A stretch of DNA of 36,520 nt from Candidatus Heimdallarchaeota archaeon (GCA_021399345.1 JAAFKI010000023.1:1-36520), one strand, 5' to 3'. Positions 18,881 to 35,829 are shown, counted from the first letter of the stretch. Translations and numbers: made by a program. Notes: a model not told the origin generated them from the sequence alone.

Positions 18881-19034
18881 CGATGTAATTTTTTACTATT
18901 TCTTTAAAATTCTTTTCTCTGTTGACTTGAACAGACTTATAATTTAGATTTCTCATTTTTTGAGCGATAAGTTTAATTTGGTGCTTGCTATAGTTAGATG
19001 AAAATATACTTTGAGAAAAATAGGAGCGGGATTT

Positions 19035-20003
19035 ATGGAACAAAATGAATCAGCTGAGCCAGAAGAGGTAGTTGAAATACAAAACTTCTTTGAACCAGAT
19101 GCACCTCATATTACACAAACAGCATTAAAACCACCATTAAAAAGCAATATATGGATTATGATCTTATTTATACTAATTCTATATGCTGCGATTCTAGTAG
19201 GCGGTAATCTTATTATGGCAGTTTTAGGGGCCCCAGCTGTGGCTATTTTTTTTGTTCTTTTTATTTTACTTGGATTGCTCTGGTTTCTTATTGTTCCATT
19301 AGTTTTTAAAATACCACAGAAGTATGAATCTTTGAAGCATTTTTTCAGAGATATTAAACTTAGTAAAGCTAAACCAATATTTCTTACCATTGGCCTAGGG
19401 CTTATAACTGCAGCAATTACAATAGGCTGTATCTCTCTTTCGTCTACAATAGCAACTATTAACGGCGGCGATTTCACAGTCAATGCCAAACAATATTTTC
19501 AAGAATCTGGCTATCTTATTTATTATTCACTCATCCCTGGTTTTTGGGAAGAAGTTGCATTTAGAGGTGTAATTCTTGTTTTACTTCTGAAAGTTTACTC
19601 AAGAACTAGAGCTATAATTATTAATGGGTTGGTGTTTGGATTCTTTCACTTAGTCAATATGTTGATACTTGGAGTGTATAATCTAGAAACCATCGTTCCT
19701 GTGTTATTTCAAGTCTTATTTGCCAGTGCTTTAGGTATATTTTTTGCGTATATGTGTGTAAAGACCAATAGCCTGCTTCCAGGTATAATCTGTCATTACT
19801 TGATAGATGCGTTTGTTATAATGTTCCTTCCCGAGACAGTACCTAATTTCTACATTTTTCTCACAACTCATGCACTAATAGGGATTGGGGTGCTTCCAGC
19901 AATACTAAATTCTTTACTCATTTGGGGAGTCTATAAACTGATATCTAAAGAATCTACATTGGTTAAACCAGAAATTGTTAAAACAGTAGTTAATGAGAAG
20001 TGA
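19035..20003 (+). CDS. CPBP (type II CAAX protease/Abi) intramembrane metalloprotease
   Basis: PGFWEEVAFRG, FGFFH, ICHYLID motifs; multiple TM helices. Confidence 0.9.
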   Translation: MEQNESAEPEEVVEIQNFFEPDAPHITQTALKPPLKSNIWIMILFILILYAAILVGGNLIMAVLGAPAVAIFFVLFILLGLLWFLIVPLVFKIPQKYESLKHFFRDIKLSKAKPIFLTIGLGLITAAITIGCISLSSTIATINGGDFTVNAKQYFQESGYLIYYSLIPGFWEEVAFRGVILVLLLKVYSRTRAIIINGLVFGFFHLVNMLILGVYNLETIVPVLFQVLFASALGIFFAYMCVKTNSLLPGIICHYLIDAFVIMFLPETVPNFYIFLTTHALIGIGVLPAILNSLLIWGVYKLISKESTLVKPEIVKTVVNEK

Positions 20004-20018
20004 ATTAAAGGTGAAAAA

Positions 20019-20978
20019 ATGATAAATGAAAAAGAAGTTACTTCAATTAGACCTTGGTGGTCAATAACTCTAGTATTAGTTCTATATGTGATTTTCTTGT
20101 TGGTTCCAAGTCTAGTACTGAATCTATTAGCTATAAATAATGCAGAAGTTTTTAATTGGTATTTGAATAATATTGTAAACTTTTGGTTAATTAATTTCGC
20201 ACTTATGACAGCTTTATGGTTAGTTATTGTACCTCTTCTGAAATTACCTGATAATAAGAAATCCTTCAAAGAATATCTTAATAGTATCAATCTTAACAAG
20301 TTCAAACCTGTAATCAAAACAATAGGTTTAGGTATCTTGATAGGTGGGATTATCCTGTGTTTTGTCGTCTTTACAAGTTGGTTGGAAGCAAAGTCTAGAG
20401 GAGGATTACAAATCTTTTATGGGCGTTTATTAGTAGAGAAAACAATACCTCTAAACATTTATTATGCTCTAGCCCCTGGGATTTGGGAGGAAGTGGCGTT
20501 TCGAGGTGTTATTTTTGCTTTATTGTTGAAAAAATATTCACAGAGAAAGACAATCATTATTAATGGAGTTATGTTTGGTTTGTTCCATCTGCTTAATCTG
20601 GTTTCTTTATTCTTCATGTTTGGTTATGAAACAGAGATAATTCTCAGTTTAGTGTATTCTATTTTGTTCCAGGTAATTTATGCTACAGCAATAGGTATAC
20701 TCCTGGCTTATCTATACTCGAAGACAAAGAGCCTGATTTCGGTTATCATAATCCATTATCTCATAGATGCTTTCGTCACTTTCCTAACATTTGTGATCTA
20801 TTCCCCTGAAACAACAATGACTGATACAGTTATCCGCTTGTTAATGATGACTACTTTAGGGATAGGAATAGTTCCATGTGCCGTTGGATGCTTAATTATC
20901 TATTTTGTCTATAAAAAGTGGCCTAACAAAACGGAGGGTTTGAAAGCTAAATTAGAACCTTCTATTGATATGGTTTAA
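20019..20978 (+). CDS. CPBP intramembrane metalloprotease, tandem paralog
   Basis: PGIWEEVAFRG, FGLFH, IIHYLID; AGGTGA SD. Confidence 0.9.
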   Translation: MINEKEVTSIRPWWSITLVLVLYVIFLLVPSLVLNLLAINNAEVFNWYLNNIVNFWLINFALMTALWLVIVPLLKLPDNKKSFKEYLNSINLNKFKPVIKTIGLGILIGGIILCFVVFTSWLEAKSRGGLQIFYGRLLVEKTIPLNIYYALAPGIWEEVAFRGVIFALLLKKYSQRKTIIINGVMFGLFHLLNLVSLFFMFGYETEIILSLVYSILFQVIYATAIGILLAYLYSKTKSLISVIIIHYLIDAFVTFLTFVIYSPETTMTDTVIRLLMMTTLGIGIVPCAVGCLIIYFVYKKWPNKTEGLKAKLEPSIDMV

Positions 20979-21076
20979 GAAAAGCATCTTCAAATGTTGA
21001 GAAGACTAATTCTAAATTTCTACAATCTAATAAGAAGAAAAGCATTTAATGAAGTGATTTTGTTCCAATATCACCC

Positions 21077-21985
21077 ATGAATATGAGTAACTCTCAGCCT
21101 AAATTTAGTCGTTTAGTTTCGTTTAGTATATGTATAGTTTCATATATTATAGCATTGGGTGCCGCTGCAGGCGTCCTTTTTGGAATAAATGGCTTAGTTC
21201 ATCCTTTATTGGCAACTCTGATTGCTGATGTAGTTGCAACTCTAGTAATCTACTTAATTAGTACAATATTCAAAAATACAAGTTTATATGATCCCTATTG
21301 GAGTGTTATCCCTATTGTCATAATTTTCTATTGGATCATTTCTATAGCTCCTGTGATTGGTTTCAAATCTTCTCACATCTGGATTATGGTTATTGTTGGA
21401 GTTTGGGGAGTAAGGTTAACATATAATTGGGCTAGAGGTTGGAAAGGACTTCATCATGAAGACTGGAGATATGCTGATTTTAGAAAAAATTATCCTAAAA
21501 TTTTTTGGTTTATTAATTTGACTGGACTACAACTTATGCCAACATTGGTGGTGTATGCAGGTTGTTTATCTCTCTACCCTGCTATAATTTCTCCAACTCT
21601 CGAAACCATGAACATCTTCTTCTGGTTAGGTTTAATGATCTGTATTGGAGCAATCATTTTGGAAGCAGTAGCAGATGAACAGTTAAAGATTTTTAATGAT
21701 AAGAAAAGGGAAGGAGAATTGTTTATTAGAGGTTTATGGGCTACTTCTAGACATCCTAACTATTTGGGAGAAATTGGCTTTTGGTTGGGATTATATTTCT
21801 TTTCGCTTGCAGCTGATTTTAGCTACTGGTGGACAATTGTAGGACCATTAGTTGTAACTCTACTATTTGTAGTAATTAGCATTCCAATGATTGAGAAGAA
21901 ATTGTTGAAGAAATATCCAACCTATAAGATATATAAAAAGAAAGTCCCAATGCTCATTCCTTGGTTTAAGAGAAGGAAAACCTAA
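21077..21985 (+). CDS. DUF1295 / steroid 5-alpha-reductase-like membrane protein
   Basis: YDPYWS, WGVRL, EDWRY, ADEQL, GLWATSRHPNYLGE. Confidence 0.9.
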   Translation: MNMSNSQPKFSRLVSFSICIVSYIIALGAAAGVLFGINGLVHPLLATLIADVVATLVIYLISTIFKNTSLYDPYWSVIPIVIIFYWIISIAPVIGFKSSHIWIMVIVGVWGVRLTYNWARGWKGLHHEDWRYADFRKNYPKIFWFINLTGLQLMPTLVVYAGCLSLYPAIISPTLETMNIFFWLGLMICIGAIILEAVADEQLKIFNDKKREGELFIRGLWATSRHPNYLGEIGFWLGLYFFSLAADFSYWWTIVGPLVVTLLFVVISIPMIEKKLLKKYPTYKIYKKKVPMLIPWFKRRKT

Positions 21986-27669: not shown

Positions 27670-28542
27670 ATGCAAATTGAGAACCATAAGTGTTTTAGTT
27701 TAACTAAGAAAGGAAAATCTAAGCCTGAAGATATAATAAAAGCTAGACTAGAACGAGTAGATTCTGTTACAAAGTTTTTCAGATTGATTCAACCAGAAGA
27801 TCTTAGTTTCTATATTTCAAAATTGAAAGAGATGTTTAGTGAAGCTGTAGGTGATTATGATTTTAATTATAATGCTTTTAATTGGAAAATAATTAGAGAA
27901 AGGTTGGAATTGATACCAAATTTCCCTGACTTAGAGAAATCGGTCTTTCTTTTCGTATGTAAGACAATCAAGTTACCTAATAACTATACATCAGATAAAG
28001 GAGAAATTGAATTATTTCATTTCGATCGCATCAAGGCTCTCGAAAGAACCTCATATTACCTGGTAAAAGCTTTAGCTGATACCTACGGAAAAGAGGAAGG
28101 AACAAGAATCTATAAACAAATAGTCCCCTATTTAATAAAAGAAATGAGGTCTGAAGATAAAACAGAAAAACCACCAGATCCCAAAACAATTACGATTCTG
28201 GATTCCAATAAGAATTCAATAGAAAGATGGTGTAAAATGGGTCTTGCAGATTTTGCATTTTGTATATTTGATGATCATAAAGTGATCTATCGTTTTGATA
28301 GTTGCTTAACACCAGAAGCTCTGAAAGAATTCAATGACCCAGATATTGCTTACTTGAGTTCCTGCTATATTGCAGATGTTCCAGAATTTAATGAAGGTAG
28401 AACAATCCACCTTAGAAGAACTCAAACTTTACATCATGCCAAATTCTGTGATGAATTATATTGGAATAACCATGTTCATCCAGATGTTGAACAACCTTCT
28501 TTAGAGTTTACTGAAAATCTGGGGAAGAAATTGGAGGAATAA
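27670..28542 (+). CDS. L-2-amino-thiazoline-4-carboxylate hydrolase-like protein (V4R-type ligand-binding fold)
   Basis: YRFDSC..EALK...DIAYLSSCYIAD...LRRTQTL...FCD pattern. Confidence 0.65.
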   Translation: MQIENHKCFSLTKKGKSKPEDIIKARLERVDSVTKFFRLIQPEDLSFYISKLKEMFSEAVGDYDFNYNAFNWKIIRERLELIPNFPDLEKSVFLFVCKTIKLPNNYTSDKGEIELFHFDRIKALERTSYYLVKALADTYGKEEGTRIYKQIVPYLIKEMRSEDKTEKPPDPKTITILDSNKNSIERWCKMGLADFAFCIFDDHKVIYRFDSCLTPEALKEFNDPDIAYLSSCYIADVPEFNEGRTIHLRRTQTLHHAKFCDELYWNNHVHPDVEQPSLEFTENLGKKLEE

Positions 28543-29490: not shown

Positions 29491-30021
29491 GTGACAAAAA
29501 TTAGAAAACAACGAATTATCAAAGATTTTGATGCGCTAAGAAAACTCCATAAAGAAGGTGTTTTAGCTCAAGTGAAAGCATTTCCAAGTAAGAAGAAATC
29601 TATGGGACATCTAGCTATAGGTTTTGATGGACCTGAGAAGACACCTTATGCTGGTGGTAAGTATAAACTTGAAATTCTCTTTGGATCAAACTATCCATAT
29701 AAACCACCATATGTCCGATTACATACACCCATCTGGCATCCCAATTTCTGGCCAAATCCTAAAGAATATCCCAATAAAAGAAATATTTGCCTAGCTTTAG
29801 TTGATAATGAATTAGTAGGAAAACATGATGGCTGGTCTCCTGCTAAGAATATCACGACTGTTATTTATTCTATTCTTGCAATGTTTAATATTGAAGGAGC
29901 TTATGTAAATCCCAAAGATGTATTCAATAAAGAAGCAGCTCTAGAATTCTTAAATGATAAGAAGAAATTCATTAAAAAGGCAAGTTCTATTAGTAAGAAA
30001 TATGCAAAATCTTACTGGTAG
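29491..30021 (+). CDS. Ubiquitin-conjugating enzyme E2
   Basis: GPEKTPYAGG, YPYKPP, IWHPN, catalytic NICL (Cys codon 29788-29790), GWSPA. Confidence 0.95.
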   Translation: MTKIRKQRIIKDFDALRKLHKEGVLAQVKAFPSKKKSMGHLAIGFDGPEKTPYAGGKYKLEILFGSNYPYKPPYVRLHTPIWHPNFWPNPKEYPNKRNICLALVDNELVGKHDGWSPAKNITTVIYSILAMFNIEGAYVNPKDVFNKEAALEFLNDKKKFIKKASSISKKYAKSYW

Positions 30022-30052
30022 AATTAAGTAAAATCTGAAAGGTGAGCTTACA

Positions 30053-30772
30053 ATGGAAAATGAATCTGAATTTCCCGAACAATATGAGAAACTCCTAAAA
30101 AAAATAGAAGCACTAGAGAAAGCCTTAGGACTTCATGAAGTTGATGACATTATTAAGGAAAAAATAGGTGTGAAACAAGAAATAAGTGAGGATACAATCA
30201 CTGAAGATGATTTACAAATCAAAGTGATAAATGAAATAGTTATCTCCCCCAAAGCTTATCTAAAGTTAGCTAAACATGCTTTAACTTATGCAAACGAAAA
30301 CATCCCAAAGAAAGATTGGGTAGAAATTATTGGCTTATTAACAGGGGGAATTAAACAAGAAGACACTCCTCTAGAACAGATTTTTGTTGAAGATTATTGG
30401 CCAGTAGATCAAGGTGATGCAGTCAGTGTAGAAATTGTTGATCAACAGATTTTCACGGAGATATTTCACAAGAAGAACGATGAACATTTTATAATAGGCT
30501 GGGCACATTCACACCCTAGCTATACTCCCTTTCTAAGCGATGATGACTTTGGCACACATCTCCGTTATCAAACCTTTTGGAATAAGTCTATTGCTATTGT
30601 TTTAGATCCCTTAATGATATCTCCTAAGAGTTTTGGAGTTGGAGTTTTCAGAATACACAAAGATAAAGAATCATACTATGAACTATCGAGTGAAGTAGAT
30701 GGTTTGAGCAGTGAAGCAGGTTATGAATCAATCAATCTTTTCATGAAAAACAAATATGAAACTGATTCGTAA
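30053..30772 (+). CDS. JAB/MPN+ (JAMM) metallo-isopeptidase, Rpn11/CSN5-like
   Basis: EIIGLLTG and GWAHSHPSYTPFLSDDD (H-x-H-x7-S-x2-D), IAIVLDP. Confidence 0.95.
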   Translation: MENESEFPEQYEKLLKKIEALEKALGLHEVDDIIKEKIGVKQEISEDTITEDDLQIKVINEIVISPKAYLKLAKHALTYANENIPKKDWVEIIGLLTGGIKQEDTPLEQIFVEDYWPVDQGDAVSVEIVDQQIFTEIFHKKNDEHFIIGWAHSHPSYTPFLSDDDFGTHLRYQTFWNKSIAIVLDPLMISPKSFGVGVFRIHKDKESYYELSSEVDGLSSEAGYESINLFMKNKYETDS

Positions 30773-30794
30773 AAAAATGAAAGCTGGGTTATAA

Positions 30795-31868
30795 TTGGAA
30801 CTAAACAACATCAAAACCTATCTAGCAATTGGAATTGTTGGATTAACCGTCGGAGTACTATATATGGCAATTCAGAAAGATTTGCCGAAAACACTCACTA
30901 TATTTTTTATAACCTTGTATGTTGTTGTTGCTCTGAGATTCTTTCTTGAAAGAAGACATTATAAAAAACATAAAACTATTCTCGCGAGCACTCAATTCCT
31001 AATACTTCCATTTTGCATAATGTTAATGGGAAATTATATCTCTCCCATAGCCGCAGCTTATGAAATATTCAGTATTGATATCGATTTATCTGGTGGGAGC
31101 TCAATTTATTCTCCTTTTAACCTAATCTCTATATCACTGATTTTTCCTGTGATTGTTCTTTCTCTCTATTTTCGAAACTTTTATTCTGGGAAATGGCCCG
31201 CAATTGCAGTAAACAGGAAGGTAAGAAGAGGAAGAAAAATACCCTTTTTGATAAATACAACTTATGTTGCAATTTTATTAGTTGGATTCTTTATTAATTG
31301 GCAAATCGATTTTGTAGGTTTCATTTTTGTTATTTTATACTTCATTTTTATCTTTAGATACTTCATAATTGCATTTGCAATGAGATCTGACCAACAAGCT
31401 CAGGTTACTTCATCTAGATCTGCATCAACAACTAGAAGAAGCAAAAGATCTGTTTCTACTAGATCAAGAAGACCGACAGCTTCTGCATCATCTGCTAGTA
31501 AAGCTTCAAGGTCTTCAAGTGCAAAAATTGCTCCTGGGATAGACGTAAAAGCAACTCGCTCTACTACAACTAAAAAAACATCCAAAATAACAACAGTCTC
31601 TAAAAAAATCTTTCCAATTGGTACACCAAAGAAAGAAGAGATGCAATGTATAATATGCTATATGGATTTTGATAAGAAAGACCGCAGAAGAATCATTTTA
31701 TGCCCCCATTGTCGTTATCCTGCACATGAAGACGAATTTATGAGTTGGTTTAAGACATCAAGACTCTGTGCTAGATGTAATCAGACTATTTCTACTAGAT
31801 ATGTAAACAATCCAAAATATAGAATCAACATAAAGCTCTATATTGAAAAAGTGATTGAAAAGCTATGA
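30795..31868 (+). CDS. Multi-pass membrane protein with C-terminal RING-variant; putative E3 ligase
   Basis: About 6 TM helices, Ser/Arg/Thr-rich linker, CIIC...CPHC..PAHEDEFMSW......CARC (31647-31778); sits in the E2-JAB operon. Confidence 0.85.
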   Translation: MELNNIKTYLAIGIVGLTVGVLYMAIQKDLPKTLTIFFITLYVVVALRFFLERRHYKKHKTILASTQFLILPFCIMLMGNYISPIAAAYEIFSIDIDLSGGSSIYSPFNLISISLIFPVIVLSLYFRNFYSGKWPAIAVNRKVRRGRKIPFLINTTYVAILLVGFFINWQIDFVGFIFVILYFIFIFRYFIIAFAMRSDQQAQVTSSRSASTTRRSKRSVSTRSRRPTASASSASKASRSSSAKIAPGIDVKATRSTTTKKTSKITTVSKKIFPIGTPKKEEMQCIICYMDFDKKDRRRIILCPHCRYPAHEDEFMSWFKTSRLCARCNQTISTRYVNNPKYRINIKLYIEKVIEKL

Positions 31869-31941
31869 TAATTCGAGTAGCCAATTGTTTAATAACTTAA
31901 AAAATATAAACAAGTTGGAAAATAGAAGGAAAGGTATTATC

Positions 31942-32526
31942 ATGGCTACTTGGAAACAGCTATCTGCAGCATTTCTACTATCATTAACTTTAGTTGGTGT
32001 TTCAATTTATTATTTTATAGAAGATAACAATTTCCTTGGAAGAGTTTATATTTTTGCTGCAATTTTTGCTTTCCTAACTTTATTTGTAATTTTCAGAAGT
32101 TTATTTTATTTGAAACACAAAGCAACATTCAATGAAGTGTTTTTTGTTCTAATGGTTCCTCTAATTCCTGTTCTAATTATAATAACTCAGAAATTATTTG
32201 GGATTTACGAGCCTTTTATCGTTTCAACCGGAATATCTACAGAAGGTCTTGACTATATTTTCTATATCAATGCTGTAGATTTTGTTTTATTACCTTATTA
32301 TATAGTTAGCAACTTCATGATTTTTAGAACATTTATTCGATATCCTTTCATCAGACTCAAGGGAACAAGCGAAAAAGGTATTCCTCCAAAATTCTTTGGA
32401 TTCTTACTAATATTCATAATCCCTGCAATCTATATCTTAACTTCAGTATTCTATCTTGAAAATCTCTTCCTAGTGATTTTTGGTGGAGTGTATTTCTATT
32501 CTGCCTTATTGATGCTGTTTGTATGA
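31942..32526 (+). CDS. Six-TM membrane protein, RING-less paralog of the upstream E3 membrane domain
   Basis: Likely start MATWKQ at 31942; shares Y.KHK, YE.F, N..P and (W/Y)P.I...G landmarks with 30795-31868. Confidence 0.75.
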   Translation: MATWKQLSAAFLLSLTLVGVSIYYFIEDNNFLGRVYIFAAIFAFLTLFVIFRSLFYLKHKATFNEVFFVLMVPLIPVLIIITQKLFGIYEPFIVSTGISTEGLDYIFYINAVDFVLLPYYIVSNFMIFRTFIRYPFIRLKGTSEKGIPPKFFGFLLIFIIPAIYILTSVFYLENLFLVIFGGVYFYSALLMLFV

Positions 32527-32570
32527 ATGATTCTAGAAACTAATTAGGTAAAGAAAAGATTTATGTCATT

Positions 32571-33206
32571 TCATTTTGGTTTCTTTTGCTTTGGTAACTT
32601 CGTCTGACTAGGGTATTTTTGTGTTGGTACTTTTTGCTTTGGAGTTTTCTCTTGAATAACTTCTTCTATTTGGGAAGCAGCTGGAGACTCTCTCTCTTTT
32701 TTTTCCTTTTTCTCTTCTTTTGGAAGTGATCGGGATTCCATGCCTTCGATTTCAGAGAATCTATCCCTATCTCTTGAAGGAGGAGTTTCTTCTTTTTTGT
32801 CTTTCTGCTTTTTCTCCATAGCTCTTGATTCCATGTTTTCAATATCTTTGAAAGTTTCTCTTTTAGGAATTGCTTCTTCCTTCTTTTCTTTGGTTTTTGA
32901 TGTTTTCTCAGCTGGAATGTAGTTTGGTTCTTTTGTCTTTTTTAGTTTATCTTGGCTAGGAATTTTCGATTTAGGGATTTTTTGTTTGGGAATTTGAGAA
33001 CTATTTTTCCTTTCTGAAGTACCTCGTAATTGCGCTCGAGCAGGAATTTTACCATCTTTTTTCCTTTTTTGCTTTTTTGGAGGAATTAGATCACTATCAT
33101 CTAATCTTTGTTTTGGAATTTTCTCCTTGGGAATTTTAGAATCATATGGATATTTTTGCTTTGGAATCTTGGCAGAAATCTTATTTTTCTTTTTTTTGTT
33201 TACCAT
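32571..33206 (-). CDS. Lys/Pro-rich intrinsically disordered repeat protein
   Basis: Repeated KIPKQK-like units and two F..IE.MESR repeats; no hydrophobic core. Confidence 0.7.
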   Translation of the reverse strand: MVNKKKKNKISAKIPKQKYPYDSKIPKEKIPKQRLDDSDLIPPKKQKRKKDGKIPARAQLRGTSERKNSSQIPKQKIPKSKIPSQDKLKKTKEPNYIPAEKTSKTKEKKEEAIPKRETFKDIENMESRAMEKKQKDKKEETPPSRDRDRFSEIEGMESRSLPKEEKKEKKERESPAASQIEEVIQEKTPKQKVPTQKYPSQTKLPKQKKPK

Positions 33207-33451
33207 TTTTAAATCAAATCCATGCTTTACTTTTCTTCAACGAATCTGTTTCCAAGAAATTCTAACACTCCAAATCTGTCTATTAACTGTTCTGAACTCC
33301 TCTTGTTATTACTTAGGATATATAACCTCATTTCTACTTATTTATATTACTATTTGCTTTCTTCAACAACCTAAATAAAATGCTTTTTATACCGAAAAGC
33401 ATAGTTTTTTAACAATCTAATGCAATATAGATAAATTGTAATAAACAAGGA

Positions 33452-33811
33452 ATGATTATTATGAGCGAAGAATTTGAAGAATTATCCTTTGATGAAGAAG
33501 AAGAGGAAGTTGAAGAAGAAGAAATTATCTCAAAAACCCCTGAAAAGTCAAAGACTCCTGGAAGTAAAAAAATTAGTGTTTATTTTCAAAGCACTATTGG
33601 GCCAAGTCCAAAACAAGAGAAACTTGTTGTTGCCACTGATGCACCAATTGGTGACATCAAATATACTGTTAGCCAAATATTTGGACTACCTCCAGATGAA
33701 TTTCATCTGTCTCATGCAGGAAGAACCTGCGATTCAGGTGATGTCTTAGAAGATTATGGAGTTGAAGATGGAGATACCATTCTACTTATCCCAGTATCAA
33801 CTGCAGGATAA
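33452..33811 (+). CDS. Ubiquitin-like modifier with acidic N-terminal extension and C-terminal single Gly
   Basis: Beta-grasp pattern ...FHLSHAGR...LEDYGVEDGDTILLIPVSTAG*; directly upstream of E1; alternative start 33461. Confidence 0.88.
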   Translation: MIIMSEEFEELSFDEEEEEVEEEEIISKTPEKSKTPGSKKISVYFQSTIGPSPKQEKLVVATDAPIGDIKYTVSQIFGLPPDEFHLSHAGRTCDSGDVLEDYGVEDGDTILLIPVSTAG

Positions 33812-33869
33812 ATGGAAGAAGTAATCAATATCCAAGAAAGAATTTCTCTTTCTCCCTCCATTTATTTTT
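33808..33869 (+). terminator. Stem-loop plus T tract between the Ubl and E1 genes
   Basis: ATAAATGGA (33808-16) pairs with TCCATTTAT (33857-65); inner AGAAAGA (33835-41) pairs with TCTTTCT (33847-53); followed by a T run. Confidence 0.45.
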
Positions 33870-33924
33870 CAAACAATCATTATTTTTTCATACTAGAAGC
33901 AGAGTAATACTTGAGGAGTATACC

Positions 33925-35175
33925 ATGAGCAACAAATCACAACAATCAAATTTTTTTGATGAAACATTCTCTGAAGAAGAACGAAAACGTCTAGATAGGC
34001 AACTTAGATTACCGGGTTGGAATCAAAAAACTTTGAAGGATTCAAAAGTGGTTATAGCAGGAATTGGCGGATTAGGTACCGAAATTGCAAAGAATCTGGC
34101 AATGGCAGGAGTTGGTACATTACATTTAATAGATTTGGACATTATTGAATACTCTAATCTTAATAGACAAATTTTATTTTCTGATGCAGATGAGGGGGAA
34201 CCTAAATCCAAAGTTTCAGCTAGAGCTTTAAAGAAAATTAATCCCTTTAGCAAATATATTTGGTATCACTCTAATCTTGAAGATGTTGATCCTGAAGTAT
34301 ATGCGACAGCTGATTTAATAATTTCTGGATTAGATTCAGTTACTGCAAGAGCTGAATTAAATCGTAGAGCTGTCCACTTCAAGAAAACTATGATTGATGG
34401 AGGAACAGCAACATACTATGGTCATGTTTACACTTACTCTCCAGGAGAGAATGCATGTCTTCAATGTGATCCTCAGATTGAAAGAGAAAGAGAAACTTTA
34501 GCAGCTTGTACTTTGGTTGGAGTTCCAAGAAAGAGATCTCACTGCTTGCTTAAGGGGCAGTTATCTTTTGAATCGAAACATAACAGAACTCCAGATACAG
34601 CAGTCATAGAAGAAATGAATGTTGTTCTAGATTATGCTAACAATTTAGTTAAAGAGCATTTTCCAGATAAAAGTATTTTTACAATTGACGAAGCTGTAAA
34701 GATGGTTGATCAGCATGATCCAACCATAATCACAATGAATGCAGTTATAGCTTCATTGCAATCGCAGGAAGCAGTTAAGATACTCCATCATGTCAAAGGA
34801 ATCAAACTTGGAACAGTAAACAAAGAATATGTTATTTACAATGGTTTGGTTGGTAAATTCTTCTACATAGAGAAGCCACCTAACAAAAAGTGTGCTTTGT
34901 GCGGTTCAGCTGCGATCATAATTGAGGAAGTAACAATTCCAGAAACTACAACTATCGATATGCTTCTTTCAATCATTAAGAATAAAGGATATAGCTATGA
35001 TCCTGAATTTGAACCATCTTTCTGGTTGATTGATAAGAAAGATCCAGAAGAAGTTGAACTCAATCTAACACTAAAAGAACAAGATATTAGGAATTATGAA
35101 ACTCTATTTGTTACAAGCTTAACCAAAAATGGTGAAGAAATAGATCTCTACATAAGGTTAATACTAAAGGGATAA
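33925..35175 (+). CDS. Ubiquitin-activating enzyme E1 (Uba3/Uba2-like, with catalytic Cys domain and C-terminal ubiquitin-fold-like domain)
   Basis: RLDRQ, GIGGLG, DLDIIEYSNLNRQ, GLDSVTAR, IDGGT, CLQC and CALC Zn pair, ACTLVGVPRKRSHC catalytic Cys (34507-34509). Confidence 0.93.
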   Translation: MSNKSQQSNFFDETFSEEERKRLDRQLRLPGWNQKTLKDSKVVIAGIGGLGTEIAKNLAMAGVGTLHLIDLDIIEYSNLNRQILFSDADEGEPKSKVSARALKKINPFSKYIWYHSNLEDVDPEVYATADLIISGLDSVTARAELNRRAVHFKKTMIDGGTATYYGHVYTYSPGENACLQCDPQIERERETLAACTLVGVPRKRSHCLLKGQLSFESKHNRTPDTAVIEEMNVVLDYANNLVKEHFPDKSIFTIDEAVKMVDQHDPTIITMNAVIASLQSQEAVKILHHVKGIKLGTVNKEYVIYNGLVGKFFYIEKPPNKKCALCGSAAIIIEEVTIPETTTIDMLLSIIKNKGYSYDPEFEPSFWLIDKKDPEEVELNLTLKEQDIRNYETLFVTSLTKNGEEIDLYIRLILKG

Positions 35176-35337: not shown

Positions 35338-35550
35338 TTAAACTTTAACCAAATTTGCTGCTTGAGAACCTCTATCAGTTTCTTCAACATCGAATTCTAC
35401 TTCGTCTCCTTCTTTCAGGTCGTTAAAGTCTTCTTTAACACCAGAACGATGGAAGAAGACTTCTTTTTCTTCTCCTTCGACATTGACGAACCCATAATTT
35501 CGGTCATACATTATTCTTTTAACTACGCCTTTCAAGTTGGATTCCTCCAT
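35338..35550 (-). CDS. cspA: Cold-shock domain protein
   Basis: KGVVK, RNP1 NYGFV, RNP2 VFFHRS, LKEGDEVEF, RGSQAANL. Confidence 0.92.
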   Translation of the reverse strand: MEESNLKGVVKRIMYDRNYGFVNVEGEEKEVFFHRSGVKEDFNDLKEGDEVEFDVEETDRGSQAANLVKV

Positions 35551-35829
35551 ATTTTTGCTCAAATTGGAACTTTTTCAAGCTCAATCTTAATTAAAAACTA
35601 GTTCTCAGAAAATTCTTACTCCTTTAACGAAACAAAACAATCTAATTTCACTACTTTTTAACTTGCTATATGAATTTGGAAGGAGGCTTTATAAATTATC
35701 CTATCCGCCTAAAGAATTTGCTGAAATAACTTAAATATCCAATAAAACATGAAATAATAGAGAATCCCAGTGGAATTTAGTTCTTTAGCAGCATATTTGT
35801 TTATTTCTTATTTTTATGATAAATTATCG

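Follow-up and report, generated by a model that had tools for sequence, protein, structure and literature searches.

The ubiquitin operons of archaea are regarded as forerunners of ubiquitylation in eukaryotes, and those already known from Asgard and Aigarchaeal genomes, which combine a ubiquitin-activating enzyme (E1), a conjugating enzyme (E2), a RING protein as ligase (E3) and a JAMM isopeptidase, have E3s that are described as small soluble RING fingers. The locus at positions 29491-35175 of a 36,520-nucleotide stretch of Candidatus Heimdallarchaeota archaeon (GCA_021399345.1, JAAFKI010000023.1:1-36520; the whole stretch is called the window below), from a 3.27-Mb genome that is 88.6% complete, raises the question of whether such a cascade can also be built around a ligase that sits in the membrane and, if so, what it would do there. 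Our analysis supports the proposal of a preliminary description, made from the sequence alone, that 29491-35175 is a complete ubiquitin-like conjugation locus around a polytopic membrane protein, with a RING-like domain that the charge distribution places in the cytoplasm. We regard it as probable, at roughly 0.6, that this protein is a membrane-anchored RING E3 that brings charged E2 to the inner membrane face and tags membrane or membrane-proximal proteins, the operon isopeptidase serving as maturase and eraser and a second membrane protein as partner in Heimdallarchaeia.

A conjugation locus and its membrane-embedded RING variant

Six plus-strand genes make up the conjugation set, and coordinates and Pfam assignments agree with where the preliminary description had placed them. 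A 176-aa UBC-fold E2 (29491..30021, +; Pfam UQ_con 5.8e-26) is followed after 31 bp by a 239-aa JAMM/JAB metalloprotease (JAB; 30053..30772, +; Pfam JAB PF01398 3.4e-12), after another 22 bp by a 357-aa protein with six hydrophobic cores, taken as transmembrane (TM) segments, and only sub-threshold Pfam RING matches (TM-RING; 30795..31868, +), and 73 bp further on by the ATG of a RING-less six-TM protein of 194 aa without a Pfam match (TM2; 31942..32526, +), a spacing as tight as had been noted. The ubiquitin-like modifier (Ubl), of 119 aa (33452..33811, +; Pfam ubiquitin 3.3e-6, above cut-off), and a 416-aa E1 with a ThiF fold and a catalytic-Cys insertion (33925..35175, +; Pfam ThiF 3e-56) lie downstream. 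The locus thus has the composition of an E1/E2/RING/JAMM operon, with a clustered beta-grasp Ubl, catalytic-Cys E1, HPN-Cys E2, JAMM protein and RING protein, and this clustering is far beyond chance, since 44 loci from other genomes preserve it gene for gene.

A motif check of the three enzymes found their catalytic residues intact, as had been claimed. The E2 has HPN83, the catalytic Cys100, WSPA115 and a loop-4 YPYKPP68, and its closest solved relatives are UBE2T, UBE2L3 and Rad6 (~1e-14). The JAB retains Glu91 and H152-x-H-x7-S-x2-D, with the Caldiarchaeum Rpn11-like protein 6fjv (2.3e-10), Rpn11/PSMD14, AMSH and CSN5 as closest solved relatives. In the E1, G46-x-GG-x-G, NLNRQ78, Cys195 within an ACT motif and CxxC pairs at 178 and 323 are all present, and residues 37-328 align with SAE2/UBA2 (1.2e-31), UBA1 (~2e-30) and UBA3 (7e-30). 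The Ubl combines an acidic N-terminal extension with a beta-grasp domain and is closest to ubiquitin and the Caldiarchaeum Ubl 6fj7/6fnn (~7e-7). The nearest eukaryotic relatives are therefore Uba2/Uba1/Uba3 for E1, canonical UBCs for E2, Rpn11/AMSH for JAB and ubiquitin for Ubl. We also considered a UFM1-type system (UFM1/UBA5/UFC1) and rejected it, because the E1 is nearer to UBA2/UBA1/UBA3 than to UBA5 (4e-13 only) and the E2 is a canonical HPN-Cys UBC; UFM1 was absent among the best 60 solved relatives listed for the Ubl.

The Ubl ends in ...PVSTAG and thus without a C-terminal di-glycine, an Ala-Gly end that it shares with nearly all orthologs across the phylum, in which the C-terminus reads IP[AVHS]S[TIR]AG (STAG in almost all) and is followed by a stop or by a tail of 1-6 residues. 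Because the STAG end is conserved and some orthologs carry a tail, the terminal Gly is probably exposed by trimming, most plausibly by the operon JAB, which we presume to be both the Ubl-precursor trimming and the deconjugating enzyme. Trimming of Ubl by Rpn11 has been shown in Caldiarchaeum (PMC5654768, PMC6043591).

The TM-RING protein consists of a six-TM domain (residues ~1-200), a disordered, basic, Ser/Thr-rich linker (~200-275) and the C-terminal RING variant; we read its start as TTG because orthologs share the N-terminus [ML][ED]LNN. Lysines and arginines number 5, 8 and 36 in loops 52-60 and 127-148 and in the C-terminal part, as against 2, 0 and 0 in the alternate loops, a distribution that by the positive-inside rule places both termini, and hence the RING, in the cytoplasm. 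In an AlphaFold2 model built with family alignments, the predicted local distance difference test (pLDDT) is 78.8 overall, ~90 or more in the TM domain and 84-91 in the RING, and it falls below 50 in linker residues 208-268.

The predicted zinc-binding motif (31647..31778, +) reads C285-x2-C288-x14-C303-x2-C306-x4-H311-x2-E314-x3-W318-x6-C325-x2-C328, a C4-H-E-C2 class with Glu314 instead of Cys or His at ligand 6. In 48 homologs the seven canonical ligands (C285, C288, C303, C306, H311, C325, C328) are invariant, as are P309, E314, W318, S322 and R327. Among 60 full-length family representatives with pairwise identities of no more than 50%, 59 retain C-x2-C...C-x2-C-x4-H-x2-X...W...C-x2-C, and X is Glu in 57 of these 59. 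The segment H-x2-E-[F/Y/L]-x2-W-x6-C-x2-C parallels H-x2-C-[L/I]-x2-W...C-x2-C of RING-H2 domains, and the matches that Foldseek and VIA return for the domain are RING/U-box E3 domains. By fold and motif we class it as a RING variant in which Glu314 would be a zinc ligand; His305 was rejected for that role since it varies (N, S, L, Y, F), whereas Cys306 is invariant. Candidate E2-contact positions are kept as well, namely a hydrophobic residue (Ile/Phe/Val) two after the first Cys and Trp318 four after ligand 6, and the equivalent positions of the Caldiarchaeum soluble RING finger srfp, I30 and W58, matter for E2 binding (PMC5654768).

TM2 has six hydrophobic cores with the same lysine and arginine pattern as TM-RING, and its AlphaFold2 model (pLDDT 87.2, predicted template modelling score 0.83) shares with that of TM-RING the order of three helices, beta-hairpin, helix, second hairpin and two helices. 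Compared directly by BLASTP, the two TM domains show no significant similarity (E 0.57). Alignment of their profiles with hhalign gave a probability of 96.6% (E 5e-10, 170 columns) with the domains aligned end to end, and reversing the sequences of either alignment lowered the probability to 0.1-0.2%, so that the match is not due to composition. Common motifs lie where helices 2 and 3 end on the cytoplasmic side (Y-KKH-KA... in one, Y-LKH-KAT... in the other) and in a basic cytoplasmic hairpin. These profile and motif comparisons make TM2 a paralog of the ligase's TM domain that lacks the RING, a relationship that fits a hetero-oligomeric ligase. A complex prediction for the TM-RING TM domain and TM2 with alignments scored 0.00, which speaks neither for nor against binding. 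A TTG at 31855 was considered as an alternative start of TM2, one that would make it overlap TM-RING, and is less likely, as orthologs start at the Met equivalent to 31942.

Gene order across the Asgard archaea

The linkage of the membrane protein to E2 and JAB, on which the preliminary description had staked its reading, holds well beyond this genome: E2-JAB-TM/RING is collinear in 20/20 loci from the same taxonomic order and in 24/24 from other classes. In the same genus the arrangement E2-JAB-TM/RING-TM2-(Lys-rich, opposite strand)-Ubl-E1 is kept in 13/13 genomes as far as contigs extend, and wherever the contig of a syntenic locus in the order includes the E2 gene, the ortholog is 63-98% identical. 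Seven genomes of a sister family, with TM-RING proteins 25-33% identical, have the order Ubl-Ubl-E1-E2-JAB-TM/RING, with TM2 directly downstream or within ~1.5 kb where the contig allows. In other Asgard classes Ubl-E1-E2-JAB-TM/RING lies on one strand in 20/20 loci from six other families, and the same order recurs in 4/4 further loci, including that of Ca. Lokiarchaeum ossiferum Loki-B35 (CP104013.1); additional matches come from Promethearchaeota/Promethearchaeia (Loki), Sifarchaeum, Borrarchaeum and others. Gene order is thus constant across deep divergence, and the membrane RING is part of the operon not in this organism alone but in Lokiarchaeia, Heimdallarchaeia and other Asgard classes.

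The distribution of the individual genes follows the same lines. The 54 homologs of TM-RING that we found are all from Asgard archaea, and a profile of the TM domain alone matches 181/400 Asgard genomes, with open reading frames mostly of 350-410 aa; run against 1.84 billion representative proteins, the profile gave only 81 matches, most with the TM-RING architecture. Five fairly complete genomes without TM-RING also have no ortholog of the operon E2 (their best matches are 38-43% identical and part-length), and since the two are missing together, the operon set behaves as one unit. TM2 occurs in 54/400 Asgard genomes, all within four families of Heimdallarchaeia (f1, f3, f5, f6), in which genomes have either both TM2 and TM-RING or neither of them, three fragmented genomes excepted.

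The preliminary description had listed the six conjugation genes correctly and passed over a seventh, a minus-strand gene between TM2 and Ubl (32571..33206, -), transcribed divergently from Ubl. It encodes a Lys/Pro/Glu-rich low-complexity protein of 211 aa with 53 Lys, many Pro, Glu, Ser, Ile and Gln and IPKQK-like repeats, and an open frame of 156-268 aa is conserved at the same site and in the same orientation in 12/12 same-genus loci that extend that far. It was not seen in the other families and has no Pfam, PADLOC or NCBIfam match; it is a genus-specific insertion in the operon. The insertion accompanies a shift of Ubl-E1 from upstream of E2, as in other families, to downstream of TM2.

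Near the operon in other Asgard classes, STAG- or RAG-ended Ubl sequences also form the C-terminal domain of proteins of 300-607 aa (L046:14872-16629, -; L053:1895-3718, +; L047:12552-13460, +), and several Lokiarchaeial loci have an extra Ubl gene together with an upstream frame of ~270 aa with a weak Ubl match.

Among the closest known systems is the Rpn11-Ub-E2-E1-srfp operon of Caldiarchaeum subterraneum, whose E1/E2/RING-E3 cascade has been reconstituted (PMC5654768, PMC6043591). Both have a Ubl, a catalytic-Cys E1, a UBC E2, a JAMM protein and a RING protein with conserved E2-contact positions. The Caldiarchaeum E3, however, is a small soluble RING finger, whereas here it is a six-TM protein with a long linker; moreover, the Ubl here ends in Ala-Gly instead of Gly-Gly, ligand 6 of the RING is Glu, and Heimdallarchaeia add the RING-less TM paralog. 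The contrast that the preliminary description drew with known operons is accordingly sound for the soluble RING of Caldiarchaeum and for that of the Helarchaeial cluster discussed below, but cannot be extended to Asgard operons as a whole, since many of them carry a membrane RING.

In the searchable literature, where an earlier mention (for example in Spang 2015 or Zaremba-Niedzwiedzka 2017) is possible, we came across no account of an Asgard ubiquitin operon with a polytopic membrane RING, of the RING-less paralog or of a Glu-containing RING. The family has apparently been overlooked because its RING falls below Pfam cut-offs, which is probably also why the homologs are unnamed or called 'hypothetical'. 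This archaeon is closely related to the ancestor of eukaryotes, and if a widespread Asgard operon has a conserved E3 that is integral to the membrane, ubiquitylation was probably coupled to membranes from early on, which would bear on the origin of ubiquitin signalling in endoplasmic-reticulum-associated degradation (ERAD), at peroxisomes and at endosomes. That protein tagging in the Asgard lineage is tied to membranes is probable. A stronger proposal would be that the Asgard operon E3 was ancestrally a polytopic membrane RING with a novel TM fold, kept from Lokiarchaeia to Heimdallarchaeia, duplicated into a RING/RING-less pair in the latter, and tagging membrane proteins for extraction, degradation or sorting; in this full form we consider it doubtful, and if true, ubiquitylation coupled to membranes, as in ERAD or at multivesicular bodies, would be older than eukaryotes. 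The idea is open to biochemistry and proteomics, as the soluble parts are small and one carrier of the operon, Ca. Lokiarchaeum ossiferum, is kept in enrichment culture.

Candidate functions at the membrane

In the mechanism that we favour, a Ubl encoded with a short tail would first be cut by the JAB so that its C-terminal Gly (...STAG) is exposed, the E1 would adenylate the Ubl and hold it as a thioester on Cys195, and the Ubl would then pass to Cys100 of the E2. The cytoplasmic RING variant, on its flexible basic linker of ~75 residues, would bind charged E2 at the inner membrane face and promote transfer of the Ubl to lysines of membrane-embedded or membrane-proximal substrates chosen by the TM domain, and the JAB would later strip the Ubl from these targets. 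In Heimdallarchaeia, TM2, encoded beside the ligase, would probably hetero-oligomerize with TM-RING.

Several points weigh against this mechanism. The TM-RING protein reaches no Pfam RING cut-off (zf-RING_2 E 0.0018, 19.0 bits vs 27.3; zf-RING_16 16.2 vs 27.4; Prok-RING_1 15.2 vs 29.1), and neither do nine distant full-length members of the family nor a 214-aa TM2-like one. Glu is unusual as a sixth ligand, the two-zinc cross-brace geometry is a prediction from the motif, and Asn or Ser follows the last Cys in place of the usual Arg/Lys 'linchpin'. The TM fold has no known match, so that the domain could be a selector, a channel or a mere anchor, and TM2 must be inessential to the system, because the ligase occurs without it outside Heimdallarchaeia. 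In addition, the genome counts given above come from related metagenome-assembled genomes and are not independent, and the substrate, the E2-RING contact and the contact between TM-RING and TM2 are all things that we infer.

What tagging would lead to is a separate matter. The preliminary description favoured an ERAD-like quality control, in which misfolded or surplus membrane proteins would be tagged, extracted by Cdc48 and degraded by the 20S proteasome, with the paired TM domains perhaps forming a Hrd1-like lateral gate or channel. The protein does resemble Hrd1/gp78, RNF121/RNF175, TRC8/RNF145, Asi1/Asi3 and Pex2/10/12 in having N-terminal TM segments followed by a cytoplasmic C-terminal RING and in the RING-H2-like spacing around H-x2-[C/E]-[hydrophobic]-x2-W; the HRD1 zinc finger is among the Foldseek matches of the RING (TMt 0.71), and the paired paralogous TM subunits recall Asi1/Asi3 or Pex2/10/12. 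The likeness to the Hrd1, Asi and Pex ligases stops at this layout, however, because comparisons by sequence and by fold found nothing above background for the TM domain among Hrd1, Doa10, Asi, Pex2/10/12, Derlin or other PDB/Atlas structures, and homology of the membrane parts is therefore unsupported. Two Cdc48 homologs and proteasome subunits are encoded in the genome, away from the operon; they occur in nearly all archaea. With the specific ERAD link thus unsupported, degradation, retrotranslocation and quality control are speculative, and we regard this outcome as unlikely.

A sorting or regulatory tag would be an outcome of another kind, the Ubl marking membrane proteins for the Asgard ESCRT machinery (endosomal sorting complexes that are required for transport), as in multivesicular-body-like sorting or vesicle release, or reversibly regulating transporters and receptors. 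Asgard UEV domains bind ubiquitin (PMC9192718; bioRxiv 10.1101/2023.07.25.550441), and the dedicated operon JAB fits reversible tagging. The same genome, in which Pfam finds four UQ_con, three ThiF and two ubiquitin matches, carries an ESCRT-linked ubiquitin cluster (contig C123, 62000-73936) with Vps4, ESCRT-II (Vps25-like), EAP30 (Vps22/36-like), a 482-aa UEV-Vps23-Vps28 fusion, a 334-aa E1 and a 78-aa ubiquitin (PF00240 1.7e-14). This cluster lies on another contig, however, and has an E1 and a more canonical ubiquitin of its own, from which the operon Ubl differs in its Ala-Gly end and acidic N-terminal extension; since the genome has this second set, the membrane-RING locus is a separate cascade with a more divergent Ubl. 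ESCRT-linked clusters have been described for Heimdall and Odin lineages (PMC9192718) and, with a soluble RING E3 in the cascade, for Helarchaeia (bioRxiv 10.1101/2023.07.25.550441). They are alike to our locus in phylum and enzyme logic and unlike it in that the latter has its own E1, E2, JAB and Ubl, a membrane-embedded instead of a soluble E3, and no ESCRT genes adjoining in the window; the 44 loci were screened for the operon's own gene families, ESCRT genes not among them. We judge a sorting or regulatory role to be quite unlikely. A DUF4379 treble-clef protein is encoded near the cluster on C123.

TM-RING could also be no catalytic ligase at all: its zinc domain might only dock E2, Ubl or JAB to the membrane, or the whole protein might be the main substrate, for instance through its Lys-rich linker. 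The sub-threshold Pfam scores, the Glu at ligand 6 and the lack of a canonical linchpin would fit such a role, as would the 9 Lys and 9 Arg of the linker. The E2-contact positions are nevertheless conserved, representatives that share at most 50% identity all keep the ligand set, the fold matches RING/U-box domains, and docking an E2 is how RING E3s work anyway, all of which makes a non-catalytic TM-RING improbable. A role in antiviral defence, as in Bil or CBASS type II modules, or in a sulfur-carrier pathway of the SAMP/Urm1 type is very improbable: the set resembles bacterial Bil operons (Ubl-E2-JAB-E1) and CBASS Cap2/Cap3 in being a compact prokaryotic operon with E1, E2 and JAB, and the E1 has a generic similarity to CBASS E1-E2 (PADLOC 6e-18) and MoeB/ThiF models, all far below cut-offs, but the E1 has a catalytic-Cys domain nearest to Uba2/Uba1/Uba3, JAB scores only ~0.004-0.007 in PADLOC, no PADLOC or NCBIfam model matches E2, Ubl, TM-RING, TM2 or the Lys-rich protein, so that defence-model matches of the Bil/CBASS type II kind are lacking, Bil and CBASS are patchy modules without a RING or membrane ligase whereas one gene order across classes, with identity declining with taxonomic distance, argues for vertical inheritance here, and sulfur transfer needs neither E2 nor RING.

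Neighbouring genes in the window

Outside the operon, the window encodes a KaiC/RecA-fold protein (562-1371, +) whose N-terminus also matches PAXNEB (Elp4; 6.7e-9, above cut-off), a Ras-family small GTPase (2030-2590; 3.3e-50) and, at 19011-21985 (+), two tandem Rce1-like membrane proteins of the CAAX-protease family (2.6e-17 and 1.1e-18) followed by a DUF1295 membrane protein (1.4e-45). Around the operon are an upstream ATC_hydrolase-like gene (27670-28542, +; sub-threshold, 1.4e-4), of which arrays of two to five paralogs are found near the Ubl operon in related genomes (L013, L014, L022, L025), and, on the other side, a 198-aa open frame without a Pfam match that runs off the contig end (35925-36518, +). 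That a second genome of the genus has a 61%-identical copy of the latter ~2 kb from its operon (L021:3859-4455) suggests that the gene is mobile or repeated. Of the 12 same-genus loci that contain E1, 9 have a cold-shock-domain gene (35338-35562, -, in the window) within ~0.1-0.2 kb of it.

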